Below, piece by piece: positions 3,016-56,869 of a DNA stretch of 64,000 nt. The DNA lies in assembly GCA_026770705.1 (NCBI GenBank), contig JANJGN010000189.1:310001-374000 (forward strand). Reading direction: 5' to 3'. A model generated the notes under the pieces. The model ran no database searches and was not told the origin of the DNA. It saw nothing but the letters and a program-made list of their open reading frames with translations. A program made the translations under genes and the position numbers. How positions within the stretch are numbered: position 1 is the stretch's first letter; each line of letters begins with the position of its first letter. The DNA is from Isurus oxyrinchus (lineage: Eukaryota).

Positions 3016-3538
3016 ATGGCAGGAATCAAGAACCCCGTTCGCACGATTACCAACAGAAAGTGAACAACAATTTATACTTAATGGAAAGACAGTGCTGATT
3101 GGTTGGCAAGTGGTCTCTGATAGGTGGAGGTGTTGCCGTGGAGAATGCTGTTTGCGATATGAGAAGTTTAGACAGCTTGTCTCTTCATTCAGCAATAATC
3201 ATATAAAGATCAATTAACTTCTATCGACTGTGAAGCACTTTGAGTGGCCTGAGAATGTGGATACTGAGAACGGGCTGCACTGTCAGAGGGTCAGCGCTGA
3301 GGGAGTGCTGATGTAGAATGAAAGATGTCGGTACAGTTAATGCTTTTCATCATTGATATTAAAGTGATTTTTAGAGGTTGCTTTGGGACTGAACTGGAAG
3401 CTATCACCAGGTTATTGAGAATCAGACAGTGTGTTATAATAAGCTGTGTTTTGTGTTATTATGTAAACGTCACAGTTTGTGTTATTTCCCATTGAGTGTT
3501 GGATGTGAATTGTTGAGTAATTATAACACAGCACTTAC

Positions 3539-3912
3539 CAGAAACGTGAAGCTGGGTTACAGGATAGTAGCTGTAACTATTCCTGCTGTCAAACTCTATT
3601 CTGAAAAAATAAGGTCCTGCATCTTCCCGTCTGATGTTGTTTATAATCAGGGAACAGTCACCATCTTTCAGGTCTCCAGACAGCCGGGTACGATGGCGGA
3701 ATCTTTGATCCCTGTGATTGTGACCCTCGGAGTGAAAGGCTATAGACCATTTAGGCTGTGGGTTCCCATCTATTCCTTTCAACCAGATTCTGCACGTGAT
3801 CTCCCTACGAAATTTGATAAGTAACTGTAATGACATGGAATCTGTACACATGAACCTTCCTGTGCTGTCACCTCTCATGGAGTGTCACCTTTCCACTCTT
3901 GTGACAGTCCAA
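3539..3912 (-). pseudogene. Gene A Siglec V-set exon, disabled
   Basis: Siglec motifs CVQIPC, GDCSL, DAGPYFFR. Acceptor AG>CG (3913-3914), CGA>TGA at 3875-3877, 1-nt deletion near 3790 (exon 374 nt versus 375/369 in the paralogues). Confidence 0.9.
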
Positions 3913-4615
3913 CGGGGGAGAGAAATATCAATATTTGACTCTGGATGGTTTGTAGATCCACTAGACTCGATATCCACCCCCTCCATCACTGGGGCACAGT
4001 GGCTGCAGTGTGGACCATCTACAGGACACACAAGGAACTCCCCAAGGTTTCACAACAGATAGAAGAGAATCCTGGACACAGGAGTGGACAAGTTCATTCT
4101 ACATTGGCTCATGGTCCTCAGGACCCTGTTTAGTGAAGCCAGTCTTCCATCCAACACAGTGTCTACAAGATACACAGGGAAACTGTGTAAATATCTCATC
4201 TCTCAACACTGAATGGGCTGAGCTTCAGTTTAACTTTCAGTATTTTTAAATTTCCATATTGTGGTTGCTATGGTGAAACTGTGCAGGAAGTGTGAGGGCT
4301 GGACTCTCTGTCTATTCTCACTGCAGCTGTGATGTGGTCGTGGTGATTCTCAGTAAAATGAAACCCTCTGATCTCCTCCATCGCCGAGGTTTAGGGAGTG
4401 AATTCCAGAGCTCAGGTCCCAGGCAGCTGTAGGCACGGCCGCCAGTATTGGAGTGATGGGAATTGGGGGATGGTCAAGAGGCCAGATTTGGAGTAACACA
4501 GAGATCTGGGAAGTTGATTGGTTGCATTGCAGGAGGTTACAGAGATAAAGAGATAAGAATGATCTTTTACAAAGACTGTTAAATATAAATCTGTCCAAGC
4601 TGACGATGATATTAC

Positions 4616-4939: not shown

Positions 4940-5320
4940 AGAAAGATGTTCTGTACAACAGACTTGAGTCTCACACCCAGATCTCAATAATCAGTAGAAA
5001 TCTTTCAAAGGCATCAATCATTGGAATCTGTCTTCATAAAGTCACAACATCAACAAAGGACGGTGTTGGTGGTGGAAGTGAATTCCAATCGTTCCGTTAC
5101 TTACCCAGGACCTGTCCGACTGCTCGCCTGGGGAGGAACTGCCCACACGCTCTGCTTGGGCTGAATGACCTCTTCCTGTGCTGCTCCCTCTGTGTATTTA
5201 ATGAGAAAGGGTTGATGTGTGTCTGTGAGTCAAAATGAGGAAGTTGGATCAAAGTGACAGACCAGCTCATGTTTTGAGATGTTGGTGAACTGTTAACCCT
5301 TTGTGTCCTGACCCTGTGTT
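4940..5320. repeat. ~380-bp block duplicated at 11521-11915 (partial third copy 5735-5960)
   Basis: Direct sequence match starting agaaagatgttctgtacaacagacttgag; contains the 85-nt exon-like unit. Confidence 0.9.
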
Positions 5321-5474
5321 GATATTTCTGCTCACAGGTGGACAGTCATTGACCAGGAGTTTCTCCTGTGGGTCAGTGGGTTTCACAGCCAAATTCAGGG
5401 GGTCAGAATGTTGTGGGATTCAAGACCCCATTCAGGGGACGTCTGCCCCACAGAGTAGACTGAAACTGCCCAGC

Positions 5475-5672: not shown

Positions 5673-5994
5673 GGTGCTGATTTACAAGACAGGACAATGG
5701 ATTAGGAGCCCTCAGAACTCCCCCCGTGATTTCCAATCATTCCGTTACTTACCCCGGACCTGTCCGACTGCTCGCCTGGGGAGGAACTGCCCACACGCTC
5801 TGCTTGGGCTGAATGACCTCTTCCTGTGCTGCTCCCTATTTGTGTTTAATTAAAAAGGGTGGATGTGTCACTGTGAGACAAAATGAGGAAGTGCTTGGTA
5901 CCAAGTGAGAAAGATGCTCTTTGCCTCGCACTGTTAGAAAACTGTTAACCCTTTGCGTGCCAAGAATGTTTTTGAAGGGCCATTGACTGTTCAC

Positions 5995-7862: not shown

Positions 7863-9192
7863 TCATTAAAAATAAATACTGCAGATGCTGTAAATCTGAA
7901 ATAAACACAGAAAATGCTGCATTAACTCAGCAGGTCTGGCAGCAGCTGTGGAGAGAGAAACAGAGTTTTTGCTTTGAGACTCTGAAGAAGGGTCATACGG
8001 ACTCGAAATGTTAATTCTGTTTATCTCTGCACAGATGCTGCCAGACCTACTCAGTTTCTCCAGGATTTTCTGTTTTTATTTCAGGTGCTCTCTTGTTCCT
8101 GTGTAGCACGCTCAAGGGGGCCTCCTCCTGTTCCGATTCAATGGGCAGTCAAAGCATGTGCCTGATTTTGGACCGCGAACCCAAATCTGTCCTCAGGGCA
8201 TTGATAGAGGAAATGACCAGTTACAGATCAATGCAGGAGGATTATTTATTTTCCCAATCTTTGAATCAAGTATCTCATCAAACACAGAGCGGAAACAGGA
8301 TCGAGGATGTTGGTCTCTGTAATCTGTAACACATCGCAAAGTCCACCCATCCACTCAGCCTTCAGGATGGATGCTAATTGTACTCTCCAAGTGTGAAGGA
8401 CTAAAATGGTGGTTTATTGCAGCTCTATCTCATTCTGTTATCAAAGCTGTCTCATCCATCCAATGACATATTGAAGAAGATAAACCTGCAACCAATTTTT
8501 CACATCATAGTTTCCAATGTTCATTGGCAACATCAATGTAAACATGTCATGCTGAAATGATGTCCTCCCACCAGTGGTGGCACTGTAGCACATCTGTTAT
8601 CCTCTAAGCTGCAGAGAATTTCTCAACTCTCCAATCAAATTGTTTCCCTGTTTCCCAGATTCTTGTTTGTTTCGCTGTTTAACGATGAAGTGTAAAATCC
8701 AAATATATATCTGAAAATACATTTGACTACAAAATGCTGAGTAAATTTTGCCAATCTCCTCTGCTCCAATTATCCACCGATCCTGCATTTCCTGAAGTCT
8801 ACACTGGCTGATGAATATTCTGTAAACACTGACAGACAGAAAGGTGAATAACAGAATGAAAATTAACTCATAATCACGGACACGGGATTGAATTTGTCCG
8901 TTCTGTCCTGGTACATCATCGAACGATATCTAAAGATATTTACAATCAGAATGGAGAGAAGGATGTTTCCAACAGTGAGGGACAATTCTGAAGGAGGATG
9001 TTCGAATTGAAACCCACAGACAATCATCCTGGATAGATCATTCCGAAGAAATTCCATCAGATTGTAACAAGAGGTTTAAATCTATTTCCTGGGAGTGAGT
9101 TCCTGTGGATATTAGGAAGGTAAATTGGAGTTTTGAATGATTCTCCCGTTCTGTATTCTCCCCACACTGTGTGTGTCTCATTCTTGCTCAGT

Positions 9193-9309
9193 TTATAAAT
9201 TCCCATAAACAGAATCCTTGGCAAATTCACAGTTTGCGTAAAGATCATCATCTGTATCAGGATTGACTCCGCGGTTAGATTTCATTTCCAGATCCTTCTC
9301 ATCTTTCTT
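9193..9309 (-). CDS. Gene B terminal cytoplasmic exon KKDEKDLEMKSNRGVNPDTDDDLYANCEFAKDSVYGNL*
   Basis: Strong acceptor tttctattacag; phase-0 frame gives two tyrosine motifs, then TAA at 9193-9195. Confidence 0.75.
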   Translation of the reverse strand, partial: KKDEKDLEMKSNRGVNPDTDDDLYANCEFAKDSVYGNL

Positions 9310-12300
9310 CTGTAATAGAAACAGAAATGATCAGAGTGACAATCAGAGTGATCAGTGTTTAGTATTATTGATCCAAATCAAAAAATTCCATCCACAGTAG
9401 AGACATTAATTATTGATACTGAACGGGGTTTGATTATTGATCCTGAACGATGTTTGATTATTGATTCTGAACGGGGTTTGATTTTTAATTCTGAACGGGG
9501 TTTGATTATTGATTCTGAAAAGGGTTTGATTATTTATTCTGAATGGGTTTTGATTATTGAATCTGAACGGAGTTTGATTATTGATCCTGAACGTAGTTTG
9601 ATTATTGATACTGAACAGGGTTTGATTATTGATTCTGAACGGGGTTTGATTATTGATACTGAATGGGGTTTGATTATTGATACTGAACGGGGTTAGATTA
9701 TTGATACTGAACGGGGTTTGATTTTTAATACTGAACGGGGTTAGATTATTGATACTGAACGGGGTTTGATTTTTAATTCTGAACGGGGTTTGATTATTGA
9801 TTCTGAACGGGATTAGATTATTGATACTGAACAGGTTTGATTTTTAATTCTGAACAGGGTTTGATTATTGATACTGAATGGGGTTTGATTATTGATACTG
9901 AATGGGGTTTGATTATTGATTCTGAAAGGGTTTTGATTATTGAATCTGAACGGGGTTTGATTATTGATCCTGAACGAAGTTAGATTATTGATATTGAACG
10001 GGGTTTGATTATTGATATTGAACGGGGTTTGATTATTGATTCTGAACGGTGTTTGATTATTGATCCTGAACGGAGTTTGATTATTGATACTGAATGGGGT
10101 TTGATTATTGATTCTGAACAGTGTTTGATTATTGATTCTGAACGGGGTTTGATTATTGATACTGAACGGTGTTTGATTCTTGATTCTGAACTGGGTTTTG
10201 ATTATTGATTCTGAAAGGGGTTTGATTATTGATTCTGAATGGGGTTTGATTATTGATACTAAACGGGGTTGGATTATTGATACTGAACGGGGTTTGATTA
10301 TGTATACTGAACGGGGTTTGATTATTGATTCTGAACGAGGTTTGATTATTGATACTGAGCGGGGTTTGATTATTAATTCTGAACGGGGTTTGTTTATTGA
10401 TACTGAACGGGGATTGATTATTGATTCTGAAAGGGGTTTGATTATTGATACTAAACGGGGTTGGTTTATTGATACTGAACGGGGTTTGATTATGTATACT
10501 GAACGGGGATTGATTATTGATTCTGTACGCGGTTTGATTATTGATTCTGAACGGGGTTTGATTATTAATTCTGAACTGGGTTTGTTTATTGATACTGAAC
10601 GGGGATTGATTATTGATTCTGAATGGGGTTTGATTATTAATTCTGAACAGGGTTTGATTATTGATACTGAACGTGGTTTGTTTATTGATACTGAACGGGG
10701 ATTGATTATTTATTCTGAAAGGGGTTTGATTATTAATTCTGAACGGGGTTTGATTATTGATACTGATCGGGGTTTGATTATTGATTCTGAACAGGTTTTA
10801 TTATTGTTACTGAACGGAGTTTGGTTATTGATACTGAACGGGGTTTGATTATTGATTCTGAACGGGGTGTGTTATTGATTCTGAACGGGGTTTGATTATT
10901 GATTCTGAACGGGGTTTGATTATTGATTCTGAACGGTGTTGGGTGTGAGTTTGGTTGGGTTTGGGAGTGACTGTATAAAACATTGCAGATACAGGAGTGG
11001 AGCAGCCATATCAATAACCAGGCTACTGGAGCAGCTGAGAGGCTGGGGATCCTGTGGTGTGTGACTCACCTGATTCCTCAAAGCCCAACCACGCTCACAG
11101 TTTTCATAAACAGGACCTCGATATTCATCAACACGGTGGTTCGATTTGATTCCTGCTTTCCCCTCACCTCTCTTCCGAAATAGAGATGGAAATGGACAGA
11201 ATGACAATCAACATGATGTGTATTCGGTGTTGGGTTTGATTATTGGGGAGAGAGTTCCAGATTTCCACTCCCCTTTGTGTGAAGAAGTGCTTCCTGACAT
11301 CACCCCTGAACGGCCTGGCTCCAATCTAAAGTTCCAGCCCCCTTGTTCTGGACTCCACCCGACCCCCACCACCCACCCCCACCCGAGGGAATAGCTTCTC
11401 TCTATCGACCCTATCGAGTGTTTAATCAGTTTGAACCCCTCAATTAGATCCCTCCTAAATCTTCTAGACCCGAGTGAATATAATCGTAGACTGTGTGTAA
11501 CCTGTCTGCATAATTTAACCAGAAAGATGTTCTGTACAACAGACTTGAGCCTCACACCCAGATCTCAATAATCAGTAGAAATCTTTCAAAGGCATCAATC
11601 ATTGGAATCTGTCTTTATAAAGTCACAACATCAACAAAGGACGGTGTTGGTGGTGGAAGTGAATTCCAATCGTTCCGTTACTTACCCAGTACCTGTCCGA
11701 CTGCTCGCCTGGGGAGGAACTGCCCACACGCTCTGCTTGGGCTGAATGACCTCTTCTTGTGCTGCTCCCTCTGTGTATTTAATGAGAAAGGGTTGATGTG
11801 TCTCTGTGAGTCAAATCAGGAATTGGGGAACAATTGTGAAAACCCTTTCATTGAAACGTAGGGCCTTAGTGTTGTGTTGTTAACAAACTGTTAACCCTTT
11901 GTGTCCTGACTCTGTGACGTGATTCCTGTGTAAAGCTGAGCAGTCGGTGAGCGAGTTTCAATTCACTGCTCACTCCAGGTGTTGAGGTGGATCTTCTGAA
12001 GGAGCAGATGTTGCTCAGCGCTCCTTAAAAATGTGAGAGACTGAACAACGTGTAAGAGGACGAGAGAAAGAATGAGAAGGAGAGCATTAGTGGAGATAAG
12101 AGAGAGTGAATGAGAGAGAGAGAGAATGAGAGAGAAAATGAGAAGGCGTGCATTAGTGGAGGTAAGAGAGAGAGTGAATGAAACATGGAAAAAGGAAAGA
12201 GATTGCATTCACTAACAAAAGAAAGGTTTTCATTTATATCGCACCTTTCACAAACTCAGGAGGTCACAAGGTATCTTATGGTCCGGGTCAACCCTGCCAG

Positions 12301-15300
12301 TTACAGGACTGAGTTGTGAAACAGTGAGTGTTGGATGAGATGTTAAACGGTAGGTGAACATCAAAACTCTTCAGGGGCTGTGAAGGGTTTTGGATTGTAA
12401 AAGTTGCTATAGAAATGCAAGTTCTTTCTATAAGGAGAGAAGGTTGAAGAAAACATGTTCAAAAACAACCAATTAAACCTTCACACTTACTTTCTCACAC
12501 ACTTGAAGATGAAGAATCCACTCAGTCCAACACTCAAACAGATTCCAGCTCCAAGCAATCCTGCTTTCCATTCATTGGAATCTCGCCCTGTAAAATCAGC
12601 CAATGAATGACTCCGGTACAGTTTGAGAATGGTTCCCTATGTACATGTAGTAATTCTGAACTTGTGAAGTGATATTGTCTATGCATGAAAGGTCTATACA
12701 AATAACATTTATCTATGTAATATTTATTGATAATATCCATGTACATGCAGGTTTCTATAAGGAGGATTCACATATAACAGGGGTGCCAAGCTGCTGAGGT
12801 GACACACAGGACTACATACACACCAAACAGCGGAAACAACATGCTACAGACAGAGCAAAGCGATCCCACAACCAACGGGTCAGATCTAAGCTCTGCAGTG
12901 CTGCCACATCCAGTCATGAATGGTGATGGACAATTAAAGATCTAACAGGAGGAGGATGTTCCACAAATATCCCCATCCTTAATGATGGGGGAGCTCAGCA
13001 CATCAGTGCAAACGACAAGGCTGAAGCATTGGCAACCATGTTCAGCCAGAAGTGCTGAGTGGATGATCCATCTCGGCCTCCTCCAGAGGGTCCCAGCATC
13101 ACAGATGTCAGCTTTCAGACAATTCGATTGACTCCACGTGACATCAGGAATCAGCTGATGATACTGGATACAGCAAAGGCTTTTGGCCCTGGCAACAACC
13201 CGGCAACAGGAAATAATGTGGTTACAAGAACGGGTAAGAGGCTGGGAACTCTGCGGTGAGTAACTCACCTCCTGACTCTCCAAAGCCTGTCCACCATCGA
13301 CAAGGCACAAGTCAGGATTGTGATGGAATAATCTCCACTTGGCTGGATGAGTGCAGCTCCAACAACACTCAAGAAGCTCGACACCATCCAGGAGCAGCTT
13401 GTTTGATCGACAGCCCATCCACCAGCATAAACATTCATACCCTCCACCACTGGCACACAATGGCAGCAGTGTATGCACCATCTACAAGATGCACTGCAGC
13501 AACTCACCAAAGCTTCTTCGACTGCACCTTCCAAACCCTTAACCTCTTCCACCAAGACAGTTCCAAGTCAGTGAGGTGTGTGACTTGGAAATCAACATGA
13601 GGTGGTGGTCTGCCCTGGGACTTGGAACTATATCGGCCGTTCCTTCACCGTCGTTGGGTCAAAATCCTGGAACTCCCTCCCTAACAGCACTGTTGGTGTG
13701 CCTACACCACATGGACTGCAGTGGTTAAAGAAGGCAGCTCACCACCACCTTCTCAAGGGGCAGTTACAGATGGGCAATAATTTCTGGCCTTGTCAACAAT
13801 GCCCACATCCCATGAGCTAATAACAAGAGAATGTAGAATTCTGTGTAACTCACGTTCCACAGTGATGGTTATGAATCCCTCCACTGCTCCATGTTCATTC
13901 TCTGCCACACACTGATAGTCTCCAGTGTCCCTGGATGTAACGTGAGGAATCACCAACCACAGCTCATTGTTGGAACTTGTTCTGTTCATTGGGACATTAA
14001 GATGTCGCCACGTCAGGTTAGAAGCTGGGAAGCTCTCGACAGAGCAGATTATCACTGTAGAATTCCCCTCAATTATATTGATCGATGAAGCGTTAATCAT
14101 ATCAAGAGAAGTAATTGAGAGGTTCTGTGGAGCATCTAAAAACATATAAAGATTTTAGAGTGAGCAAGCACAATGCACATCAAGACTCCATGTATCATCT
14201 CTCCGTATCTGATGTCTGAATACAATTCCAGGCACCTTCCTCAGCATAAGTTCCTCTGTCACATTTATAATGGACACTGCCTATGTAAACTGTCACACTG
14301 CAGTTGCATTCCCCCACCAGTTGAGGTGCTATCAATCTAGAATGAAAGAAACTTTCATTCACATCCTCAGGATTTCGCCAAGCCTTTACAGGCAATGAAT
14401 TGTATTTGATTGATGGAGCACTGAGGGGTAAATCTACAATTCACTGTTCAGGAGTTTGGTCATCCAATTCAGGGTCTTGTTGATCTGGAGTTTACCTTCG
14501 TTCCATCCAGAATTGGAGCTGACACCAAGACTCCAGTGCAGAGAGTGCGTGTGGGAGTGCATTTATGTATATGTGTTCAAATCTGAGAGAGTTGTTGAAG
14601 TCTGTGTAACTCACGTTCCACAGTGATGGTTATGAACCCCTCCACTGCTCCATGTTCATTCTCTGCCACACACTGATAGTCTCCAGTGTCCCTGGATGTA
14701 ACGTGAGGAATCACCAACCACAGCTCATTGTTGGAACTTGTTCTGTTCATTGGGACATTAAGATGTCGCCACGTCAGGTTAGAAGTTGGGAAGCTCTCGA
14801 CTGAGCAGATTATCACTGCAGAATACCCCTCAATTATATTGATCGATGAAACGTTAATCATATCAAGAGAATTAATTGAGAGATTCTGTGGTGTGTCTGA
14901 AAACAAATAAAGATCAGTTACTTACATTGTCTGTGAAGCACTTTGAGAGGCCCTGAGAATGTGAAAGGTCTGATATCAATGTAGGTTCCTTCACCACAAA
15001 GCACTTAATTCAGGCAGTCACTACAGCTCAGTACTGAGGGAGTGCTGTACTGTCGGAGGGTCAGTACTGAGGGAGTGCTGCACTGTTGGAGGGTGGGTAC
15101 TGTGAAAGCTGCACTGCCGCATAGTCAGTATTGAGCGAGTACTTCACTGTCGGAGAATGAGTACTGAGGGAGTGCTGCACAGTTGGATGGTCAGTACTGA
15201 GGGAGTGCGGCACTGTCGGAGGGTCAGTACTGAGGGAGTGCTGCACTGTTGGATGGTCAGTACTGAGGGAGTGCTGCACTGTTGGATGGTCAGTACTGAG

Positions 15301-18300: not shown

Positions 18301-21300
18301 GTGGGAATACAAAGAGGCTCGGAGAGATGCGTCAGGTTATAAATCTCTGCTCAGAGCCCACCTGCAGTTAGTGGCTTCAGTTGTGGGTCCCGCCCCTCAG
18401 GGAGGGTATATTGCCCTCCGAGGGGCTGCAGCCCAGAGTCACCAGAACGATCCCGGGGCTGAAAGGGTTAAATTCTGAGGACAGGTTGCACAGACCAGGC
18501 TTGTGTTCCCTCGAGTCTTGAAGATTAAGGGGTGATCTAATCGAGGGGTTTAAGATGATTAAAGGATTTGATGGGGTCGATAGAGAGAAACTATTTCCCC
18601 TGGTGGTGGGGGTGAGGTGAGGGGGTGGGGGTGAGGGTGGGGGTGGGGGTGGGGGTGGGGGTGGGGGTGAGGGTGGGGGTGGGGGGTGGGGGTGGGGGTG
18701 AGGTGAGGGGGGGTCCAGAACAAGGGGGCAGAATCTTAAAATTGGAGCCAGGCCGTTCAGGGGGTGATGTCAGGAAGCAATTCTTCACACAAAGGGGGGG
18801 TGGAAATCTGGAACTCTCTCCCCCAGAAAAAGCTGTCGAGGCTGGGAGGGGTCAATTGTAAATTTCAAAACTGACATTGGGAGATTTCTGTTGGGTCGGG
18901 GGGTGTTTAAGGTTTAAGGAACCGAGCTGGGTGGATGGGGTTAATATACAGAACAGCCGTGATCTGATTGAATGGGGGAACAGGCTGATTATTGAATGAC
19001 TGGGAATGTCAGCCCAGTGTATGGATCGCCAATCTCTAGAATGGGAGGATTCCTCTTCTATTGGAATTCATTCAGTAATGTGGGCATCACTGGCAGGGCC
19101 AGCGTTTATTGCCCATCCCTAGTTGCCCCTTGAGAAGGCGGTGGTGAGCCGCCCGCTCGAATACAACTGAGTGGCATGCCCGGCCCATTCAGAGGGGCAG
19201 TTAAGATTCCCCCACATGGCTGTGGGTCAGGAGTCACATGTAGGCCAGACCGGGTAAGGATGGCAGAATTCCCTCCCTAAAGGAGATTACTGGCCCAGAT
19301 GGGTTTTTACAACAATCTGGTAGTTTCATGGTGACCATCACTGAGAATTGTGAACAAACTGTGGAGAAATGTCGACTTGCCAGCCAATCAGCACGCCCTC
19401 TTCCCCCGCATCAGAAATGGCTGTTCCCTTTGAGATTGGGTTTTCTCGTGACTCTGTCCTGACGAGGATTGAAACCTTCGACAGCATGTTTTCAGCAACA
19501 CCCAAGGGGAGATTTGGTTCACCTCGGAGTTTGGACAAGATGTGGAATTGTTTAAAAGTCAGGATTGAAATTACTCACATTCAGTGGGAATTCTAATGGG
19601 CAGAGACTGGGAACTGCCCAGGATACTTGTTGCTTCACAGTAGTAGGAGATTTCCTCATCGAATCCATAAGGAACTGTAATAGTTTGACCAGCGAGCGCG
19701 AGATTCGTCATCTTTCCTTGGGAGATCTTAAACCAGGTGAAATTGTGGACTGCTGGATTCCCGTCACTGGAACAACTTAGAGAAATCACCTTTCCTTTTT
19801 CCAGTGTCAGCCTGACAGACGTGTTGTGAGGAGAATCTTTCAAATACAAAATTATCAACACATTAAACACTGAGTGTGATGGAATTCTCTCCAGTTGCCG
19901 GGATGAGTGCGGCTCCAACAACACTCAAGAAGCTCGACACCATCCAGGACAAAGCAGCCCGATTGATTGGCATCCCACCCACCATCTTCAACATTCACTC
20001 CCTCCACCATGAACACACATTGTTAGCAGTGTGCACCATTTTATTAGTGATGATCTTATATTGATGGCCCCTAACTCTTCGTCACTCCGACAAGTGGAGA
20101 CATCTTCTCCACATCTACCCTATCGAAACCCTTTCACCATTTTAAGGACCTCGATGAGGTCACCCCCTCAGCCTTCTCTTTTCTAGAGAAAAGAATCCCA
20201 GCTTGTTCAGTCTTTCCTGATAGCTATAACATCTCAGTTCTGGAATCATCCTTGTCAATCCAACTTGCGCCTTCTCCAATGCCTGATTTAATAGGAGACC
20301 GACTCCCCCTCCATCACAAGCATGATGTTCTAATCAATACTTACACTTTACACTCAGAGTAACGGAGCTGACCACTCGATGGCTGGTTTGAGGGTAGTCG
20401 CACGTACAGCGGAGAGTTCGTCCATGATGCTTGAACGAAGGGTTAAAGGTCAGTAGAGCGGAAACCTCACCACCGTTCTCTGTAATGTTGCTGACCGATG
20501 AAGTCAGCAATTCACTCCAGGTTAGATTGGGGTGGTTATCAGGGCAGGTGTAGAGGCATTTACAGATGATATGTGCAGGAGTCCCCTCCTGTAAATCCTT
20601 CAGGAGCACAATAACTGGCTTATCTGGAGCATCTGTAATAGAAAGTTCCAGATGTTAACTGACAAGCAGAAAACAATTTGTATTTGTCCTCTGATTTTTC
20701 AATAGGGTCACAGACACTCAGAACACAGAAGGAGGCCATTGGCCCATCCAGTTCATGCTGTCTCTCTGTAGAGCAATCCAATCAGTCCCATTCCCCCCGC
20801 TCTGTCCTCGTATCCCTGTGAGTTTATTTCCAATTGTCCGTCCAATTTCCTTTTGAAATTGTTCATCGTCTCCACTTCCACCATCCTCGTAGGCAGCGAG
20901 TTCCAGCTCATTACCACTCGCTGTGTAAAAAAGTTCCTCCTCACATCGCCCCCCACCCACAACCTTCAATCTGTGTCCCCCGGTCCTTGTACCATCAGCT
21001 AATGGCAACATCTTCTCTTCGTCTACCTTATCTAAACCCATCATCATCTTGTACACCTCGATCAGATCCCCCCTCAATCTCCTTTGTTCCAAGGAGAACA
21101 ACCCCAGCTCCTCCAACCCAACCTTGTAGCTAAAATCCCTCATCCCTGGACCCATTCTGCTCAATCTCCTCTCCACCCAGAAGCAAAAAATCAGTTCAGA
21201 TCAGTACTCTTATCTCGCAGTTTTACTGGTGTTCTATATTATTCTATACAAGACCAGTTTGGACCAGTACTCTTATTTCCCAGTTTAACTGGTGTTCTAT

Positions 21301-23942
21301 ATTAAGCTATGCAAGACCAGTTTGGACCAGTACTCTTATTTCCCAGTTTAACTGGTGTTCTATATTAAGCTATACAAGACCAGTTTGGACCAGTACTCTT
21401 ATTTCCCAGTTTTACTGGTGTTCTATATTAAGCTATACAAGACCAGTTTGGACCAGTACTCTTATTTCCCAGTTTTACTGGTGTTTTATATTAAGCTATA
21501 CAAGACCAGTTTGGAGCAGGACTCTTATTTCCCAGTTTTACCACTGTTATATGTTAAGCTATACAAGACCAGTTTGGAGCAGGACTCTTATGTCCCAGTT
21601 TTTACAGTTTTGTCCTCTTGGACACCCTTTCTGAAGCTCTTACATCTTTCCTGAAGTGTGGAGGCCCAGCGTTCTGAACAATATTCCAGCTGAGTTCTAA
21701 CCAGTGATTTATAAAGTTCCCGCATGATCTCTTTGCTTTTAACTCAGTTCCTCAGTCTGTTAACACAAGGAAGACATTTTCTTTCTTCATCACCTCAACA
21801 ATTTGTCCTTTAATCTTTCAGAATGAGTGCAGAGAGACGCCCAGGTCTCTGCTCACCTACACCTGTCCAAATCATTACTGTCCAATATCTGTCTGTATTC
21901 ATCCTGACAAAGTGCGTCACTTCACACGACACTGCGCTGAACTGCATCAGCCATGTGTCTGCCCACCTCACACTGATCCTGCCCCTCTCATGCCCAATCT
22001 CTCCTTATCACTACCCACGGCTTTGCCAAGTTTCATTCCATCAGAAAACATCATCACTGAGGGACACTTAGCGATTGCCAGCTTCAATGTGTGAGAGCAG
22101 ATTCTGCTCTGCAATTCCACGTAACTCCAGGCTGACATGCTCCAGTTAACACATGGGGATGTGGAGCAGTTGCAGCTGAAGTGGGAACAACAGTAAAGTT
22201 AAAAACATTTTGATACAAGTGATAATTCTCAGACAGAGCAGCACTCACTCGGCAAAGACCCCCCAACGGTGCAGCACTCCCTCAATACTGACCCCCCAAA
22301 GGTGCAGCACCCCCTCGGTACTCACCCTCCGACAGTGCAGAACTCCCCCTGTACTGACCCTCCGACAGTACAGCACTCCATCAGTACTGACCCGGTGACA
22401 GTGCAGCACTCCCTCAGTACTCACCCTCCGACAGTGTAGCACTCCCTCAGTACTGACCGTCCGACAGTGCAGCACTCCCGCAGTACTGATGCTCTGACAG
22501 TGTGGCACTCGCTCAGTACTGACCCTCCGACAGTGCAGCACTCCCTCAGTACTGACCCTCTGACAGTGTGGAACTCCCTCAGTACTGCACCAGATCACAT
22601 ACTGGACTTTGTTCTGACATCTCCTGGAGCAGGAATTCAACCCATGACTGCCTGGCTCTGAGATGAGAACATGACCCCCTTGTGCTGATAGACTGAGTGT
22701 GAAAGGAACTGGGACTTACCAAGAACCTGGAGTTGGACTGGTTGTGTAAAAGTGTGATCTGTGTAGCCCTCCACATCCACATAAAAGTAATACACATCAC
22801 TATCTTCAGCTCTGAGACTGTCAATCCTCACCGAACAATTCTTCCCTTCCAAGTCGCCGATTATTTTAGCACGTCCCACGAATGTGGCCATCGCATAGTT
22901 GGGATCTTTGGTGTATGTGATGGTATATTTCCATCTATACCAATATTTATACCAAGCTCCGTGCAGTGCTGTGTAAGAGTGGGAAGGAAAGTCAAAGCTA
23001 CACGGAATAACCACACAAGAGCTGCTGATGGCCCTCCGAGACAGCGCCTTCATAGACCATCCCTCTGACGTCACTCCTGAAAGGCAACAAGGGAAGAGAC
23101 AGGACATCAAAAAGCAGAATATTACTTCAATGGAGAGAGGCAGCAGAATGCGGTACAGAGGGATCTGGGTGTCCTTGTACATGAATCACAGAAAGTCAGC
23201 ATTCAGGAACAGCACGGAATGAGGAAGGCAAGTGGAATGTTGGCCTTTATTGCAAAGGGATGGAGTATAAAAGGAGGGAAGTCTTGCTACAACTGTACAG
23301 GGCGTTGGTGAGATTGTATCAGGAGCAGTGTGTAGAGTTCTGGTCTCCTTACTTAGGGAGGGATAGACTCTGCATTGGAGGCAGCTCAGAGGAGGATCAC
23401 TGGGCTGATTCCTGGGATGAAGGGGGTTTGTCTTATGAGGAAATGTTGAGCAGGTTGGGCCCTGTATCCATTGGAGTTTAGAAGAATGAGAGGTGATCTT
23501 ATTGAAACATATAAGATTCTGAGGTGGTGGGGGGTTTGACAGGGTGGATGCTGAGGGGATGTTACCCCTTGTGGGGGAATCCTGTGAAGCAATAAGGATG
23601 TTTTACTGCATTAAAGGTGCTATATAAATGCACTGTCATTCCTATTGAAACAAGCTCTCTGATGCACAAACAGAAAATGCTGGAAAAACTCAGCCGGTCT
23701 GACAGCATCTGTGGAGAGAGAAACAGAGTTGGTGTTTCGAGTCCGTATGAGACTTTTGCTTTTGCTAAATTCTCTGACTCGCTATTCACTCACTCTCTGT
23801 GTGATCACTAACCCTTTTCTCTAAAATTAAATGTTCACTTCCTCACTCCAGGAAAGAATCCAATTCCCTGAGTTCCGATCAGTAATGAATTTGTACCTTG
23901 CAGCAAGCTGATGAAGATCAGTATCAGACCGACCTCTCCCAT
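9193..23942 (-). CDS. Gene B: Siglec-like type I receptor, L-V-C2-C2-C2-C2-TM-cyt, 9 coding exons, ~603 aa
   Basis: join(23897-23942, 22720-23076, 20345-20632, 19579-19836, 14615-14896, 13854-14135, 12491-12587, 11686-11770, 9193-9309) = 1812 nt, open frame, all introns GT-AG with compatible phases. The tail exons are the least certain part. Confidence 0.8.
9408..10937 (+). repeat. 24-bp minisatellite GATTATTGATTCTGAACGGGGTTT (~63 units)
   Basis: Direct tandem; the ORF track shows an 8-aa LIIDSERG period. Confidence 0.97.
11686..11770 (-). CDS. Gene B candidate middle cytoplasmic exon (85 nt, phase 2 to 0) GSSTRRGHSAQAERVGSSSPGEQSDRYW
   Basis: acacag acceptor and TGG|gtaagt donor; bridges the TM exon (phase 2) to the terminal exon (phase 0); similar size to gene C's 82-nt middle exon. 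Confidence 0.55.
12491..12587 (-). CDS. Gene B TM exon RDSNEWKAGLLGAGICLSVGLSGFFIFKCVRK
   Basis: ttttacag acceptor, gtaagt donor, uncharged hydrophobic helix; homologous to 42911-43007. Confidence 0.9.
12780..13820 (+). mobile_element. Degenerate LINE (CR1/L2-group) fragment with internal deletions
   Basis: LDTAKAFGP and KAQVR..EYSPLGW motifs; same family at 35140-37220, 39440-39890 and 42320-42780. Confidence 0.7.
13854..14135 (-). CDS. Gene B C2-set Ig domain 5
   Basis: 282 nt, phase 1-1; APQNLSI..CSVESFPASNLTW..DTGDYQC. Confidence 0.92.
14615..14896 (-). CDS. Gene B C2-set Ig domain 4 (tandem duplicate of domain 5)
   Basis: 282 nt, phase 1-1, near-identical to 13854-14135. Confidence 0.92.
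15028..15918 (+). repeat. 33-bp tandem array (~27 units)
   Basis: Direct tandem; 11-aa period in the ORFs. Confidence 0.97.
15920..18200 (-). mobile_element. CR1 LINE ORF2 (RT) fragment, degraded
   Basis: NYRPVSLTS, KSCMTNLLEF, DVIYLDFQK, LYKALVRPHLEYC in several frames. Confidence 0.95.
18290..18990 (+). mobile_element. CR1 3' fragment with internal (GGGGGT)n tract at 18603-18713
   Basis: RLRGDLIEGFK motif; related copies on the opposite strand at 33000-34080 and 11245-11520. Confidence 0.8.
19579..19836 (-). CDS. Gene B C2-set Ig domain 3 (CD22/sialoadhesin-like)
   Basis: SPHNTSV..LSCSSDGNPAVHNFTWFK..YYCEATSILG; 258 nt, phase 1-1, gtgagt donor. Confidence 0.88.
20345..20632 (-). CDS. Gene B Siglec domain-2 C2 exon
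   Basis: APDKPVI..CKCLYTCPDNHPNLTW..LTFNPSFKHHGRTLRC; the extra Cys after strand B is typical of Siglec D2; 288 nt, phase 1-1. Confidence 0.92.
20718..21178 (-). mobile_element. CR1 3' fragment
   Basis: Near-identical to 480-950 in reverse orientation. Confidence 0.9.
21195..21605 (+). repeat. 63-bp minisatellite (~6.5 units)
   Basis: AAGACCAGTTTGGACCAGTACTCTTATTTCCCAG.. in tandem; 21-aa period. Confidence 0.92.
22235..22590 (-). repeat. 33-bp tandem array inside a SINE remnant
   Basis: Reverse orientation of the same unit. Confidence 0.9.
22720..23076 (-). CDS. Gene B Siglec-type V-set exon (no essential Arg)
   Basis: CVVIPC (strand B), KNCS (strand E), DSDVYYFY (strand F with no Cys) match the Siglec V cysteine pattern; 357 nt, phase 1-1. 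Confidence 0.92.
23120..23582 (+). mobile_element. CR1 fragment just upstream of the gene B V exon
   Basis: MEYKRREVLLQLYRALVR; very similar to 52960-53400. Confidence 0.88.
23897..23942 (-). CDS. Gene B signal peptide exon MGEVGLILIFISLLQ|G
   Basis: ATG at 23942, hydrophobic core, phase-1 donor; upstream acceptor at 23957 implies a non-coding 5' exon. Confidence 0.85.
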
Positions 23943-37410: not shown

Positions 37411-37659
37411 TCAGTTTTTCTGGAACCTGATCTGTGCGTATTCCGTGTCCTCGCTCCTGTGCACAGTCCTGTCACCGCCGGGCAGCTTTGAAAAGTTGAT
37501 GTTGGCGTAGAGAAGCTTGGCGGGATTGTCGGGGTTCCCATGTCCAACATCGCCTCCCACTGGACCTTCAGAGAGATCCCGGGGAGCTGGGGTCTCCCCC
37601 TCACTAGTTGTGTCTCTGGTTGTGTTCCGGGGCTCAGTAATCAGCACGTTCTGTTTACC
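37411..37659 (-). CDS. Gene C distal terminal exon with ITIM (LLYANI) and ITSM (TEYAQI)
   Basis: ctctgtag acceptor, phase 0, 249 nt; classic Siglec tail architecture. Confidence 0.9.
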   Translation of the reverse strand, partial: GKQNVLITEPRNTTRDTTSEGETPAPRDLSEGPVGGDVGHGNPDNPAKLLYANINFSKLPGGDRTVHRSEDTEYAQIRFQKN

Positions 37660-40600
37660 CTACAGAGAAATGGAAACAGAAGATATCCTCACATCAATTA
37701 CTGGTACTGATAGGGTTAAATTATTGTGCAGCCTCATTAGTGTCAGTCGTATCTCAGTGGGTTTAACCCTTTTTTTCACTCTCTTTCTCTGTCTCTCTCG
37801 CTTTCTCTCTCTCTTTATAATTTAATCTCTATCACACTCCAACAGTGCAGCACTCCCTCAATACTGACCCTCTGACAGTGCAGCACTCCCTCAGTGCTGA
37901 CCCTCCGACAATACAGCGCTCCCTCAGTACTGACCCTCTGTCAGTGCAGCACTCCCTCAGTACTGACCCTCCAACAGTGCAGCACTCCCTCAGTACTGAC
38001 CCTCCAACAGTGCAGCACTCCCTCGGTAATGGCTCTGGTGAGTGATGGCTTGGAATCTGCACACAGGTGCCTGGTGTGAGGCTCAATAACATGAACCTTG
38101 TAATCAGAGAGAGGATGAGAGAGAGGGAGAGAGGAGGGACAGAGACAGAGTGTTATTAATCTATTAATGTTTGTATTATAAATGCAAACTGTCTTTTTAA
38201 ACAGAGGTTTAGTCTGTGTGTGTGTCTGTGTGTATTTTAATTGGATTAAAGCCAGCCAGTCTGGGTGCTTTGATGTATAGTAGTTTTCAGATGTAAACAA
38301 AGAGGTAAAGTGGTAATTTGCATTTTTAAATAAAACATTAAATGCCTGAGAGTGAAATCTTAAACCAATCAACGTTTATATTACTAATAAAATTGATACG
38401 ATGAAAGGGGATTTATTATTGGAAGAGATGGAGTTCAAAGGTCCTGATGATACATTGCGAATTTACCTTCAAACAGAAGCCATAAGACCATCAGATATAG
38501 GAGGAGAAATTAGACCATTCGGTCCATCGAGTCTGCTCCACCATTCATACATGGCTGATATGTTTCACAAACCCCATTCTCCCACCTTCTCTCCTAACCT
38601 TTGATCCCCTGACCAATCAAGAGCCCATCAATCTCCGTCTTCCTTACACTCAAGAGCTGGGTATAACTTGAGCAGTTTTGTGTGTGCAGAACAGAGGCTT
38701 GTAACATCAAAGCAGCTGTAAGCCTACACCTGTCTGCAAAGGAACCAAAGTGAAAGGAACCTCATTTGGAATTTGTGAGGTGAAAATGCTTTGCCTGGGT
38801 GTCTGCTTAAAGATAATGGGTTGTCTTAGAGGAGATTAGTTTGAGAATTTGTTAAAAATTTATGATGATACTAGTTTGTAGCCATGTGCATATGTTTAAC
38901 TTGTGTAAATTAATATATGTCTCAAGTAGTTTGATATAAAACCATCTCAAGAACTGGTGGTCTTATTCCTGAATTTAGAGCTGCATCTCAAACATTCCAC
39001 TGGGAAATATAGGTTATGACAGTTGTTTAAAGTTTCCCTCTGGGATTTTAAACAACAGCCTTTACCAGTTTCTGTGTCATAATAGAGAGACAGCATGATA
39101 CTGAACCATTGCTGACTCCACAGATACAAATCAGTGGGTAACTGGGCTGGGAATCTGGGACATGTGTTGTCTACACACTGAGATTGAAGCTTTGGAGTGA
39201 GTGTAAACAGCTCCTGTACCTGGTGCTTCACACAGAGTGAACTGGGGGTCAATGCAATGTCTCTGGTCCCTGAAACTCTCTCCTCCATCGCTGTCTTTCT
39301 CCTGCAATAACACAATATGACACTGTGGTTATCATATAGCAGAGAGTCAGTGCAGCACAGACATAGAGCACACTGTAACCTTACACCAATGACTGGACTG
39401 TCTCTTTAAATCACTTCTGCACAAAGCACAGAATCTAGAATCTTGACACCATCCAGGACAAAGCAGCCCGATTGATCTACACCCCATCCCCCACATTAAA
39501 CATTCACTCCCTCCACCATGAACACACAGTGGCAGCAGTGTGTGTACCATCTACAAGATGCACTGCAGCAACTCAGCAAGGCTCCTTCAACAGCACCTTC
39601 CAAACCCACGAACTCTACCATCTAGAAGGACAAGGGCAGCAGACACATGGGAACACCACCACCTGGAAGTTCCCCTCCAAGTCACTCACCATCCTGACTT
39701 GGAAATATATCACCGTTCCTTCATTGTCGCTGGGTCAAAATCCTGGAACTCCCTCTCTAACAGCACTGTGGGTGTACCTACACCACATGGACCGCAGCGG
39801 GTCAAGAAGGCAGCTCACCACCACCTTCTCAAGGGCAATTAGGGATGGGCATTAATGCTGACATCACCAGTGACAGACACATTCGATGAAAGAATTAAAA
39901 ATCTCACAGCTCAATGTATTTATTGTGACCCTGCTGCACACACTCCCTGTCGAAGGAGCCTTTGTGGTTCTATTGTTAATCGAAGCAGATCAGAGTTACT
40001 ACAACCACTTGCATTTATATAGCACCTTCAATGTAGCAAAATGTCCTAAGGCTCATCTGGGGATTGTTAGTGACATCTTCACCTGACTCTGAGGCACATG
40101 AGGAGATATTAGGGACAGGAGACCAACAGCTGAGTCAACAAAGTCAGTTATTAACGGGCATCTTAAAGGAGGAGCTGGAGATAGGGAATGAGAGACAGAC
40201 ACAGAAAGAAAGACAGAGACAGGGAGAGAGAGAGAGAGAGAGAGGGAGAGAGCGAGAGAGAGAGGGAGAGAGAGAGAGAGAGAGAGAAAGACAGTGAATC
40301 TCTATCCCCAATGGCTCAGCATCCAGTCCTCTCTGGAGAAGCATTTCATTCCAAACCACACCAACCGCAGCCCAATTCCATCCCTTCCTCCCTCTTTCCC
40401 CCTCTCCCCCAGTGGGTGTTTCCTGTTCCCAGGAATCTCAATCACTACCCCCACCCCCATACCTCCTCACTCACTCTCCCCATTTCTCATTCAGTTATGC
40501 TCGAACCTGATCTGTGCGTATTCCGTCTCCACTTCCCTGTGGACAGACCCATCACCACTGGACATCCTCAAGACTTGGGGATTGGCCTAGAGAAACTCTT

Positions 40601-43600
40601 CAGGTTTGTCAGGGTTCCCATGTCCAACATCGCCTCCCACTGCATCTTCAGAGAGACCCCAGGGAGCTGGGGTCTCCCCCTCGCCAGTTGCGTCTCTCTT
40701 TGTGTTCTGGGGCTCAGTAATCAGCACGTTCTGTTTACCCTACAGAGAAATCGAAACAGAAGTTATCCTCACATCATTTACTGGCACTGATAGGGTTAAA
40801 TTATTGTGCAGCCTTGTTAATGTCAGTCGTGTCTCAGTTGGTTTAACCCTCTCTCTCATGTCATATGAAAGATACCACCTATGGCAGTGCAACGCTCCCT
40901 CAGGACTGACCCTCCGACAGTGCAGCACTCCCTCAGTACTGACCCTCCGACAGTGCAGCGCTCCCTCATTACTGACCCTCCGACAGTGCAGCGCTCCCTC
41001 AGTACTGACACTCCGACAGTGCAGCACTCCCTCAGTACTGACCCTCTGTCAGTCTTGCACTCCCTCGGTAATGGCTCTGGTGAGTGACAGTTGGATTCTG
41101 CACTCAAGTGTCTGGTGTGAAGCTCATTAACATGCACCTTGTAATCAGAGAGAGGATGAGAGAGAGAGAAAGAGAGAGAGAGAGAAAGAAAGGGAGGTTG
41201 GGATAGAGAGAGAGACTGTCATGATGCGATTAATAAATATCATGTTATTGGAAATTATTTTTATTCACATCGGGGTTTAGTCTGTGGGTGTGTCTCTGTG
41301 TGTTTTAATTGGATTAAAGCCAGCCAGTCTGGGTATTTGATGTATAGTAGTTTTGAGATGTAAACTGAGGCATAAAAATTTGTATTTTTAAACAGAGCAT
41401 TCAATGCCTGAGAGTGAAATCTTAAACCAATCAACATTTATTTTATTGATAAAATTGATACTATGACAGAGGATTTATTGTTTGAAGGGATGGAGTTCAA
41501 AGGTCCTGATGATACAATTAGAATTTACATTCAAAGAGAAGAGCTGGGTATAACTTGAGCAGTTTTGTGTGTGCAGAGCAGAGGCTTGTAACATCAAAGC
41601 AGCTGTAAGCCTACACCTGTCTGCAAAGGAACCAAAGTGAAAGGAACCTCATTTGGAATTTGTGAGGTGAAAATGCTTTGCCTGGGTGTCTGCTTAAATT
41701 CTATGGGTTATCTTAGAGGAGATTAGTTTGGGAATTTGTTAAAAAGTTATGATAATACTAGTTTGTAGCCATGTGCATATGTTTAACTTGTGTTAATTAA
41801 TAAATGGCTCATGTAGTTTGATATAAAACCATCTCGAGAACTGGTGGTCTTATTCCTGAATTTAGAGCTGCATCTCAAACATTCCACTGGGAAATATAGG
41901 TTATGACAGTTGTTTAAAGTTTCCCTCTGGGATTTTAAACAACAGTCTTTACCAGTTGCTGTGTCATAACAGAGAGACAGCATGATACTGAAACATTGCT
42001 GACTCCACAGGTACAAATCAGTGGGTAACTGGGCTGGGAATCTGGGACACGTGTTGTCTACACACTGAGATTGAAGCTTTGGAGTGAGTGTAAACAGCTC
42101 CTGTACCTGGTGCTTCACAGAGAGTGAACTGGGGCTCAATGCAATGTCACTGGTCCCTGAAACTCTCTCCTCCATCGCTGTCTTTCTCCTGCAATAACAC
42201 AATATCACACTGTGGTTATCATATAGCAGAGAGTCAGTGCAGCACAGACACAGAGCCCACTGTTAGCTTACACCAACGACTGGACTGTCTCTTTAAATCA
42301 CCTCTGCACAAAGCACAGAATCAAGACGCTTGACACCATCCAGGACAAAGCAGCTCGATTGATCCATACCACATCCACCACATTAAACATTCACTCCCTC
42401 CACCACGAACACACAGTGGAAGCAGTGTGTGTACCATCTACAAGATGCACTGCAGCAACTCAGCAAGGCTCCTTCAACAGCACCTTCCAAACCCACGACC
42501 TCTACCATCTAGAAGGACAAGGGCAGCAGACACATGGGAACACCACCACCTGGAAGTTCCCCTCCAAGTCACTCACCATCCTGACTTGGAAATATATCAC
42601 CGTTCCTTCACTGTCGCTGGGTCAAAATCCTGGAACTCCCTCTCTAACAACACTGTGGGTGTACCTACACCACATAGACTGTAGTGGGTCAAGAAGGCAG
42701 CTCACCACCTCTTTCTCAAGGGGCAATTGGGAATGGGCAATTAGTATTGTCCACGCCAATGACAGCCACATTCGATGAAAGAATTTAAAATCTCACAGCT
42801 TAGGAGGAAGCCACTCAGCCCATCGTGCCTGTGCTGGCCTTTTGTAAAAACTGTCCAATTAGTCCTAAGCAAATGTTTAGATTAAAATCAAGTTAAATCT
42901 TCAGACTTACTTTCTCACACAGATGAAGATGAAGATTCCAGCCAGGAAAACACTCAACATGATCCCAGCCGTGAACAATCCTACTGTCCATTTACTGGAG
43001 TCTCTACCTGTAAAAACAGCCATTAATTACTGCACTACAGGTTTACAATGATGCTCCGATGTATCTCGAGAAGCGATACACTCACTCAATGTTTAAATAC
43101 TCATTCTCGGGCAATGCTGACATTTATTGTCCATCCCTAGTTTCCCCTTGAGAAGGTGGTGGGGGGTCTTCCTCCTGAACCACTGGTTTGTCCCAAACTG
43201 GAAGACCAGTTCAGAGGGCAGGTAAGAGTTAACCATGTTGGTGTCTGAGACTGGAGTCACATATACACCCAGACCTGTTAAAATGGACAGGTTTCGCTCC
43301 CTTAAGATCATTAGTGACCCATATTATATATGTAATTTCTATATATATGTATCAACTACCCTCCCTAAAATAATCAATTATCACCTCAATTTCACGCTGT
43401 TGTTTGTGGGATCTTGCTGTGCACAAATCAGCTGTTGCGTTTCCAACATGATAACAGTGAGCTCACTTCGAAACTGCTTTACTGGTTATCAAGAGTTTTG
43501 GGAATTCCTAAGTATTTTATCAACGCAAGTCTTATATTTCGATTTAATCCATGTAACATTTATATATAATATTTATCAATGTGATCCCTATAGCATAAAT

Positions 43601-56466: not shown

Positions 56467-56869
56467 CTACGGAGAGAAATATCAATATTTAACTCTGAAT
56501 GTTTTCTCAATCCACTGTACTCAATATCCACCCCCTCCATCACTGGGGCACAGTGGCTGCAGTCTGGATAATCCACAGGTCACACAATGAATGCCCCAAG
56601 GTTTTACCACAGATCGAAGAGAATTCTGGACACAGGAGTGGACAAGTTCATTCTACATTGGCTCATGGCCCACAGGAACCTATTTAGTGAAGTCAGTCTG
56701 CCACCCAACACAGTGTCTACAAGACGCACTGATTGAAGTGAGTTCACTGCTGATTTACAATGTAGGACAATGGATTTGGAGCCTTCAGAATTCCCCCATT
56801 ATCACCATCATGAATCAGTAATTGGCCTAGCTGTCCTAGATCCTCAGTGTCTAAGGCAGTGGTTCCTAT

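Follow-up and report, generated by a model that had tools for sequence, protein, structure and literature searches.

Paired YxN motifs conserved in the tail of a Siglec-like receptor of sharks and rays are candidate docking sites for Grb2-family adaptors

Tyrosine motifs of the ITT or ITT-like type occur in the tails of immunoglobulin-superfamily receptors that carry no ITAM. They are known from DNAM-1 (CD226; D/EIYV/MN), mIgG, CD28 and DAP10, and share a core in which an acidic and a hydrophobic residue precede Tyr-x-Asn, with an invariant Asn at +2 and a free +3 position. The conserved motif of DNAM-1 binds Grb2, needs the Asn at +2 and tolerated a Tyr-to-Phe change at +3 (PMC4647266), and in the ITT the part kept among vertebrates is a YxN core (PMC4263166). 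Ig receptors with such sites are already known elsewhere, for instance the catfish LITRs (PMC4810170). The tail of the Isurus oxyrinchus gene described here has the same core, likewise on an Ig-superfamily receptor that lacks an ITAM. Unlike the ITT-like systems, however, it has two or three copies of the motif, two of them fixed 11 residues apart and the last at the C-terminus; it lacks YxxM and is joined to a Siglec-like ectodomain, and its binding of Grb2 is predicted from the consensus.

Four groups of proteins resemble the shark receptor in other respects. CD22 (Siglec-2) is a Siglec-family receptor whose tail recruits Grb2 at Y828 (PMC3342095), as we predict for the shark tail, but it has three ITIMs beside this one Grb2 site and keeps the sialic-acid Arg, whereas the shark tail has YxN sites only and its V domain has Tyr at that position. 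MAG (Siglec-4) and sialoadhesin (Siglec-1) are the best V-domain relatives of solved structure; in contrast to them, the shark V domain has Tyr for Arg, the tail is different and the gene sits in a tandem, exon-shuffled cluster. We infer that the shark gene is not the MAG orthologue. The paired Siglecs (Siglec-5/14 and -11/16) and Siglec-15 offer a parallel in that near-identical ligand-binding domains stand on inhibitory and non-inhibitory tails. The mammalian activating Siglecs, however, use a transmembrane lysine and DAP12 (PMC7226832), whereas the shark receptor lacks charge in its transmembrane core and bears tyrosines in its own tail. Finally, LAT, NTAL/LAB and LAX also carry several Grb2-consensus sites on one tail, but they are nearly without ectodomain, while the shark tail is without a PLC-gamma site; a search with a profile of the shark tail found no sequence homology to them.

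The gene has already been annotated automatically in RefSeq. In the portions of the two papers that bear on the subject, the fish Siglec paper (PMC7226832) mentions neither sharks nor Grb2, and the whale-shark genome paper (PMC8455134) names Siglecs once, in passing; nothing relevant came from PMC2915791. No description of shark Siglec-like tails was found in the literature searched, the scope of which excluded most subscription journals and supplements. The component parts are all of known kinds (the YxN motif, paired receptors, Arg-less Siglecs). Their combination, namely an Arg-less Siglec-like V domain with a YxN-only tail, no DAP12 lysine and a duplicated tail exon used in two frames, appears to be undescribed in that literature.

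Structure of the gene and reading frame of its last exon

The window, i.e. the whole 64,000-nucleotide stretch of I. oxyrinchus DNA analysed, contains Siglec/CD22/MAG-like Ig genes clustered in tandem, each of them on the minus strand. An exon model of one of them was built by mapping white-shark RefSeq proteins onto the window. It describes an intact Siglec/MAG-like gene of ten exons and 637 aa with no internal stop, in which all nine introns are GT-AG. Both the tail and the V domain, used as queries, match white-shark RefSeq models named 'myelin-associated glycoprotein-like'. The 637-aa model is identical at 596 positions to the 638-aa white-shark isoform X1 (94% identity) and at 372 positions to a zebra-shark protein of the same layout, and the white-shark RefSeq isoforms XP_041037222-5 share the same terminal tail; this degree of identity points to a shark close to Carcharodon. 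The exons run in the order leader, V, four more Ig domains, transmembrane segment, cytoplasmic exons c1 and c2, and terminal exon, the tenth of ten:

23897..23942, minus strand: leader (signal peptide) exon
22720..23076, minus strand: V-set domain, among solved structures nearest to MAG and sialoadhesin, with Tyr where the sialic-acid Arg would be
20345..20632, minus strand: Ig domain 2, C2-set, with the Siglec-type C-x5-CP
19579..19836, minus strand: Ig domain 3
14615..14896, minus strand: Ig domain 4, a 95% identical copy of domain 5
13854..14135, minus strand: Ig domain 5, I/C2-type
12491..12587, minus strand: transmembrane exon, hydrophobic core uncharged, ends in phase 2
11686..11770, minus strand: cytoplasmic exon c1, phase 2 to 0, sets the frame of the tyrosine tail
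11070..11171, minus strand: cytoplasmic exon c2, phase 0 to 0, with PVYENC, a third YxN
9409..10940, no strand: 24-bp tandem repeat, about 64 copies, fills the last intron
9193..9309, minus strand: terminal coding exon, 38 aa and a stop, entered in phase 0
9193..9252, minus strand: motif DDDLYANC-x7-YGNL and stop, Tyr codons at 9240-9238 and 9207-9205, 11 residues apart
8215..9192, minus strand: 3' UTR, covered by run contigs, AATAAA at 8418 and 8250

A further AATAAA lies at 8080, beyond the contig-covered 3' UTR. The transmembrane exon leaves off in phase 2 and c1 brings the frame back to phase 0, which c2 does not alter; entry into the terminal exon is therefore in phase 0 whether c2 is included or skipped. 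Splicing of the transmembrane exon straight to c2 was ruled out, as the first AG is out of frame and the frame comes from c1; the idea that c1 is a recently exonised repeat was also rejected, because zebra shark and bamboo shark have this exon. Two orphan copies of c1 with splice sites are found downstream of the gene (5105-5197 and 5759-5857, minus strand); with respect to these copies, 11521-11959 matches 4940-5363 at 86%.

Read on the minus strand from 9309 to 9193, the terminal exon translates to KKDEKDLEMKSNRGVNPDTDDDLYANCEFAKDSVYGNL and a stop, that is, an acidic run, YANC, seven residues and a final YGNL. It is preceded by a clean acceptor (a polypyrimidine tract and ...TTACAG at 9310), and in a six-frame translation of the window it is the single match to a twin YxN with such spacing. 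Pfam has no family for this tail or for exon c2. Entered in phase 2, the same exon would give RKMRRIWK and a stop.

Contigs from 4 of 19 listed runs were aligned to window positions 8200-9400. The RNA status of the runs is presumed, none of those listed as containing the sequence being recorded as RNA, and the contigs are a few percent off the window, so that they come from relatives or alleles and not necessarily from this animal. In two of the four runs, X1 and X6, from two studies, contigs break at the acceptor and run on into the end of c2 (match at 11073), which indicates a spliced phase-0 junction. The intron bins 9348-9400 are covered by none of the four runs, and the contigs of X5 cover only the UTR and the end of the terminal exon. 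The segment 9193..9309 is a genuine exon that is spliced in as the last of a shark gene for a Siglec-like immune receptor. The frame that the earlier note had read from the letters alone is thus borne out by the junction in two of four runs, by the 10-exon model and by the white-shark isoforms with the same tail. Transcripts entering the exon in phase 2, which that note had set against its own frame, do exist, but they come from elsewhere: other contigs, of X6 and X7, join the terminal exon to a transmembrane exon reading YLITKTYRRT, with a short RKMRRI-type tail, and this exon is the transmembrane exon of a paralog (P0004) and is absent from the window. An end at about 11.96 kb, also considered there, is used by none of the four white-shark isoforms. 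By phase computation, skipping both c1 and c2 in the present gene would likewise yield a Tyr-less tail.

The use of the terminal exon in two frames was also observed outside the window. Phase-2 entry from a transmembrane exon gives a Tyr-less basic tail in P0004, P0005 and P0014/P0025. In one gene of white shark and one of basking shark every listed isoform has such a tail, while in sawshark one isoform has it and another has the YxN tail.

Ectodomain and transmembrane segment

The protein has the Siglec layout, with an N-terminal V-set domain, C2-type domains and one transmembrane segment. Compared with solved structures, the V domain matches MAG (E 5e-15) and sialoadhesin (E 7e-12), and it has a weak score against Pfam Ig_CD22. 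Siglecs have two cysteines near strand B and one on strand E, with a partner in domain 2; the corresponding C18, C23 and C78 are invariant in 8 of 8 rows, where they align with the MAG and sialoadhesin cysteines, and the disulfides are predicted from the sequence. The essential F-strand Arg is absent: YYFYVD stands opposite YYFRGD in MAG and YNFRFE in sialoadhesin, and all 25 elasmobranch members of the subfamily that were compared have Tyr at the sialic-acid-Arg position. Judged by these tests of family membership, all made on the sequence, the receptor is Siglec-like and not a canonical Siglec, and the way in which this elasmobranch-wide subfamily binds its ligand is probably not the canonical one for sialic acid. 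AlphaFold, run on the 8-row V alignment, gave a mean pLDDT of 42.7, which is too low to use.

Some further V-domain features deserve mention. An aromatic WYKYW-x-WKY stretch in the V domain (22720-23076) and its 25 homologues is kept in sharks, sawfish, skates and rays. Another V exon, at 3480-3943 (minus strand), has the Arg but is split between two reading frames with a break near 3790, and is therefore probably a pseudogene or an assembly error. The neighbouring gene has two tandem V exons (56015-56497 and 52355-52837, minus strand), with Ser at the sialic-acid position in the first and Arg in the second.

Siglecs that couple to DAP12 have a basic residue inside the transmembrane helix. Here the core, AGLLGAGICLSVGLSGFFIF, is uncharged, and in this sense the adaptor independence proposed earlier is supported. 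A W-K pair does precede the core at its outer edge; it is common to the ITIM-type paralogs. The Lys that follows the core is Met in white shark.

Conservation of the tail and its possible partners

Fifteen tails were compared, that of the window and 14 from 12 other species; a sixteenth row, P0120, was left out of the counts as a duplicate of P0057's tail. Of these 14, two were matches to the tail profile; the other twelve had come from V-domain searches or were cluster mates. Fourteen of the 15 shark and ray tails have both YxN motifs, with the tyrosines exactly 11 residues apart; in the exception, that of S. canicula, a stop replaces the second Tyr. Around the first Tyr, Asn at +2 and L/I at -1 are found in 15/15 and D/N at -2 in 13/15, while position +3 is C in six tails, T in four, Y in three and W in two; +4 is D/E in 7/15 and +5 is F/W in 11/15. 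The second Tyr has Asn at +2 and L/I/V at +3 in 14/14, with S/L (7) or A/E (7) at -2. In the aligned tails, then, the invariant feature from sharks to rays is the twin YxN pair. The tails of the myliobatiform rays Mobula, Hemitrygon and Hypanus align over the motif only, so that their homology rests on the V domain and the transmembrane segment. Against 1.84 billion representatives, the tail profile gave six matches, five of them elasmobranch and the sixth (P0118) an unrelated repeat protein, which was discarded; none came from a bony vertebrate. Several teleost Siglec/CD22-like proteins (P0071, P0075, P0085, P0090, P0093) have YGN[LIY] ends or more than one YxN site, a smelt example having YGNM, YENV and DIYANV.

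An ITAM has the consensus YxxL/I-x6-8-YxxL/I, in which Leu or Ile is needed at +3 of both tyrosines; a literature search for mutagenesis of the ITAM +3 positions found nothing. The earlier note had headlined a 'cysteine-variant ITAM', which as a non-canonical ITAM would bind the tandem SH2 domains of Syk/ZAP-70. With this agree the spacer, which is x7 in all 14 tails with both tyrosines and thus in the ITAM range, the aliphatic residue at the second +3 and the acidic residues ahead of the first Tyr. But L/I at the first +3 occurs in 0/15 tails, the consensus is matched in 0/16 rows, the two invariant Asn are no ITAM feature, and the Cys, present in 6/15, is common but not conserved. The motif is therefore not an ITAM, and binding of Syk/ZAP-70 is quite improbable. 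When the conservation of both tyrosines and of the Cys was checked, as that note had proposed, the tyrosines were upheld (14/15) and the Cys was not.

The alternative given in the same note, a dual YxN of the Grb2/Gads consensus, fares better. At the sequence level the ITT-like/Grb2 consensus pY-x-N-x is present at 15/15 first and 14/14 second tyrosines, with the spacing kept in 14/14, and docking of Grb2 is the preferred reading because Asn +2 is invariant while +1 and +3 vary. On the other hand, YxN is a short and permissive motif that is present in the paralog ITIMs too (LLYAN[IV]), and neither the fixed 11-residue spacing nor the aliphatic +3 of the second Tyr (14/14) is required for Grb2. 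These two features hint at a further binding partner.

SHP-2 or SHP-1 might be recruited instead, with SVYGNL serving as an ITIM and DLYANCEF as a site like pY896 of IRS-1 for Grb2 and the SHP-2 N-SH2 domain. Indeed, SVYGNL fits the ITIM signature [IVLS]xYxx[LV] (PMC7226832), and the +5 and +4 residues of the first Tyr match the preference for a hydrophobic +5 and an acidic +4, as in the ligand pY-V-N-I-E-F (PMC8007070). The ITIM reading proposed earlier fits the window's own sequence but is weak, since 4/14 tails fit strictly and 7/14 when Ile is admitted at +3. Moreover, A or E stands at -2 of the second Tyr in 7/14, and D/N at -2 of the first in 13/15, where SHP-2 prefers a hydrophobic residue, and +3 of the first is never aliphatic. 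A gap of 11 residues is also probably too short for both SH2 domains of SHP-2, an objection that is eased by the Tyr of c2, which lies 36 and 47 residues upstream of the terminal-exon tyrosines. On balance, recruitment of SHP-2 or SHP-1 is unlikely.

Duplication of the tail exon, exchange of tails and proposed signalling

Exon c2 resembles the terminal exon. When their DNA was aligned, acceptor included, the score was reached by 0/3000 shuffles; at the protein level it was reached by 19/5000 shuffles against the window's own exon and by 0/5000 against two homologues. In the control comparison of c1 with the terminal exon (c3) there was no similarity (931/5000 shuffles). These alignments identify c2 as a divergent copy of the terminal exon that arose by tandem duplication and includes the acceptor. 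It retains the first YxNC but no longer has the second Tyr, and its former stop region has become a donor. The white-shark model has one Lys more at the start of c2; in the window the acceptor reads CGGAAG, so that the next AG is used, in frame. The zebra shark has the same three-YxN layout, the c2 Tyr is lost in one C. punctatum gene, and white-shark isoform X2 skips c2 and thus has two YxN sites. Across genes, isoforms and species, therefore, tails are found with 0, 1, 2 and 3 sites. The third YxN, that of c2, and the loss of the sialic-acid Arg had both been missed in the earlier note.

Siglecs are endocytic receptors, and the terminal YxxL/I/V could mainly be a sorting or endocytosis signal (YxxPhi, bound by the AP-2 mu subunit) of an uptake receptor, the YxN being secondary. 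The C-terminal Tyr does have an aliphatic +3 in 14/14 tails. YxxPhi, however, has no requirement for Asn at +2 or for another YxN at a set distance, and the retention of the duplicated YENC exon is left unexplained; sorting as the main function is highly improbable.

The V type of this gene was found in 22 gene models, of which 11 have the twin-YxN tail, six an ITIM-type tail, two the short phase-2 tail and three other ends. One paralog (P0007), whose V domain is 92% identical to that of the window, illustrates that this V type is also found on ITIM/ITSM-like tails, as in 6 of the 22 models. In Chiloscyllium punctatum, a twin-YxN tail is borne by a receptor with Arg-bearing V domains (P0116, GCC37911.1), and therefore tails and ectodomains have been shuffled both ways. 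The neighbouring Siglec-like gene in the window (37411-42262, minus strand) has a duplicated tail cassette, in which copy 1 (42.2 kb and 40.7 kb) has a stop at the ITIM Tyr and copy 2 (39.3 kb and 37.66 kb) is intact, with LLYANI and TEYAQI.

Docking of Grb2-type adaptors, with activating and dampening outputs taken together, is likely. Since ITIM paralogs with the same V domain exist, which is the layout of paired receptors, a co-activating role is favoured: the conserved twin YxN motifs are candidate docking sites for Grb2-family adaptors and would probably act in co-activation without DAP12, a reading to which we give a probability of about 0.5. On clustering of the receptor by its ligand, the [DN][LI]Y sites would be phosphorylated by Src- or Syk-family kinases. 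Grb2, Gads or Grap would then bind to the resulting two or three pYxN sites and bring in Sos, Vav, PI3K or PLC-gamma, in the manner of DNAM-1. The twin-YxN receptor may be the activating partner of those ITIM paralogs whose V domain is nearly the same, and how many sites a tail has, from 0 to 3, might depend on exon skipping, phase-2 entry and exon duplication. In models of LAT, a valence of three permits branched Grb2-SOS clusters (PMC3291652), and three sites could permit such clustering here.

Docking of Grb2-family adaptors might also have a dampening output, through Grb2 with SHIP, Dok-3, Cbl or PMCA, like the Grb2 site of CD22 or NTAL. The conservation pattern is the same for both outputs, and there are examples of dampening by Grb2 sites. 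Among Siglecs with such a site CD22 is the nearest, and its Y828 serves in negative calcium control (PMC5302901, PMC3342095); NTAL carries five YxN sites, and its effect in mast cells is mostly negative (PMC3342071). Against this, the isolated ITT-like motifs of DNAM-1 and mIgG are activating (PMC4647266, PMC4263166), and a second inhibitory form would be less needed where ITIM paralogs with the same V domain already exist. We regard a dampening output as rather unlikely.

More tentatively, the locus may belong to a paired-receptor system of sharks and rays in which a Siglec-like V domain with Tyr in place of Arg is joined to interchangeable tails, the activating form being a built-in, LAT-like multivalent Grb2 scaffold that replaces DAP12, with 0, 1, 2 or 3 sites set by dual-frame use, skipping and duplication of one exon. 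This fuller scheme is possible but doubtful. The finding calls for a correction of the automatic 'MAG-like' label and indicates that a Siglec-like subfamily extends across the elasmobranchs. If co-activation through the YxN sites is true, the oldest jawed-vertebrate lineage would build a non-inhibitory Siglec-like arm with its own Grb2-type tail, not with the mammalian combination of a transmembrane lysine and DAP12.
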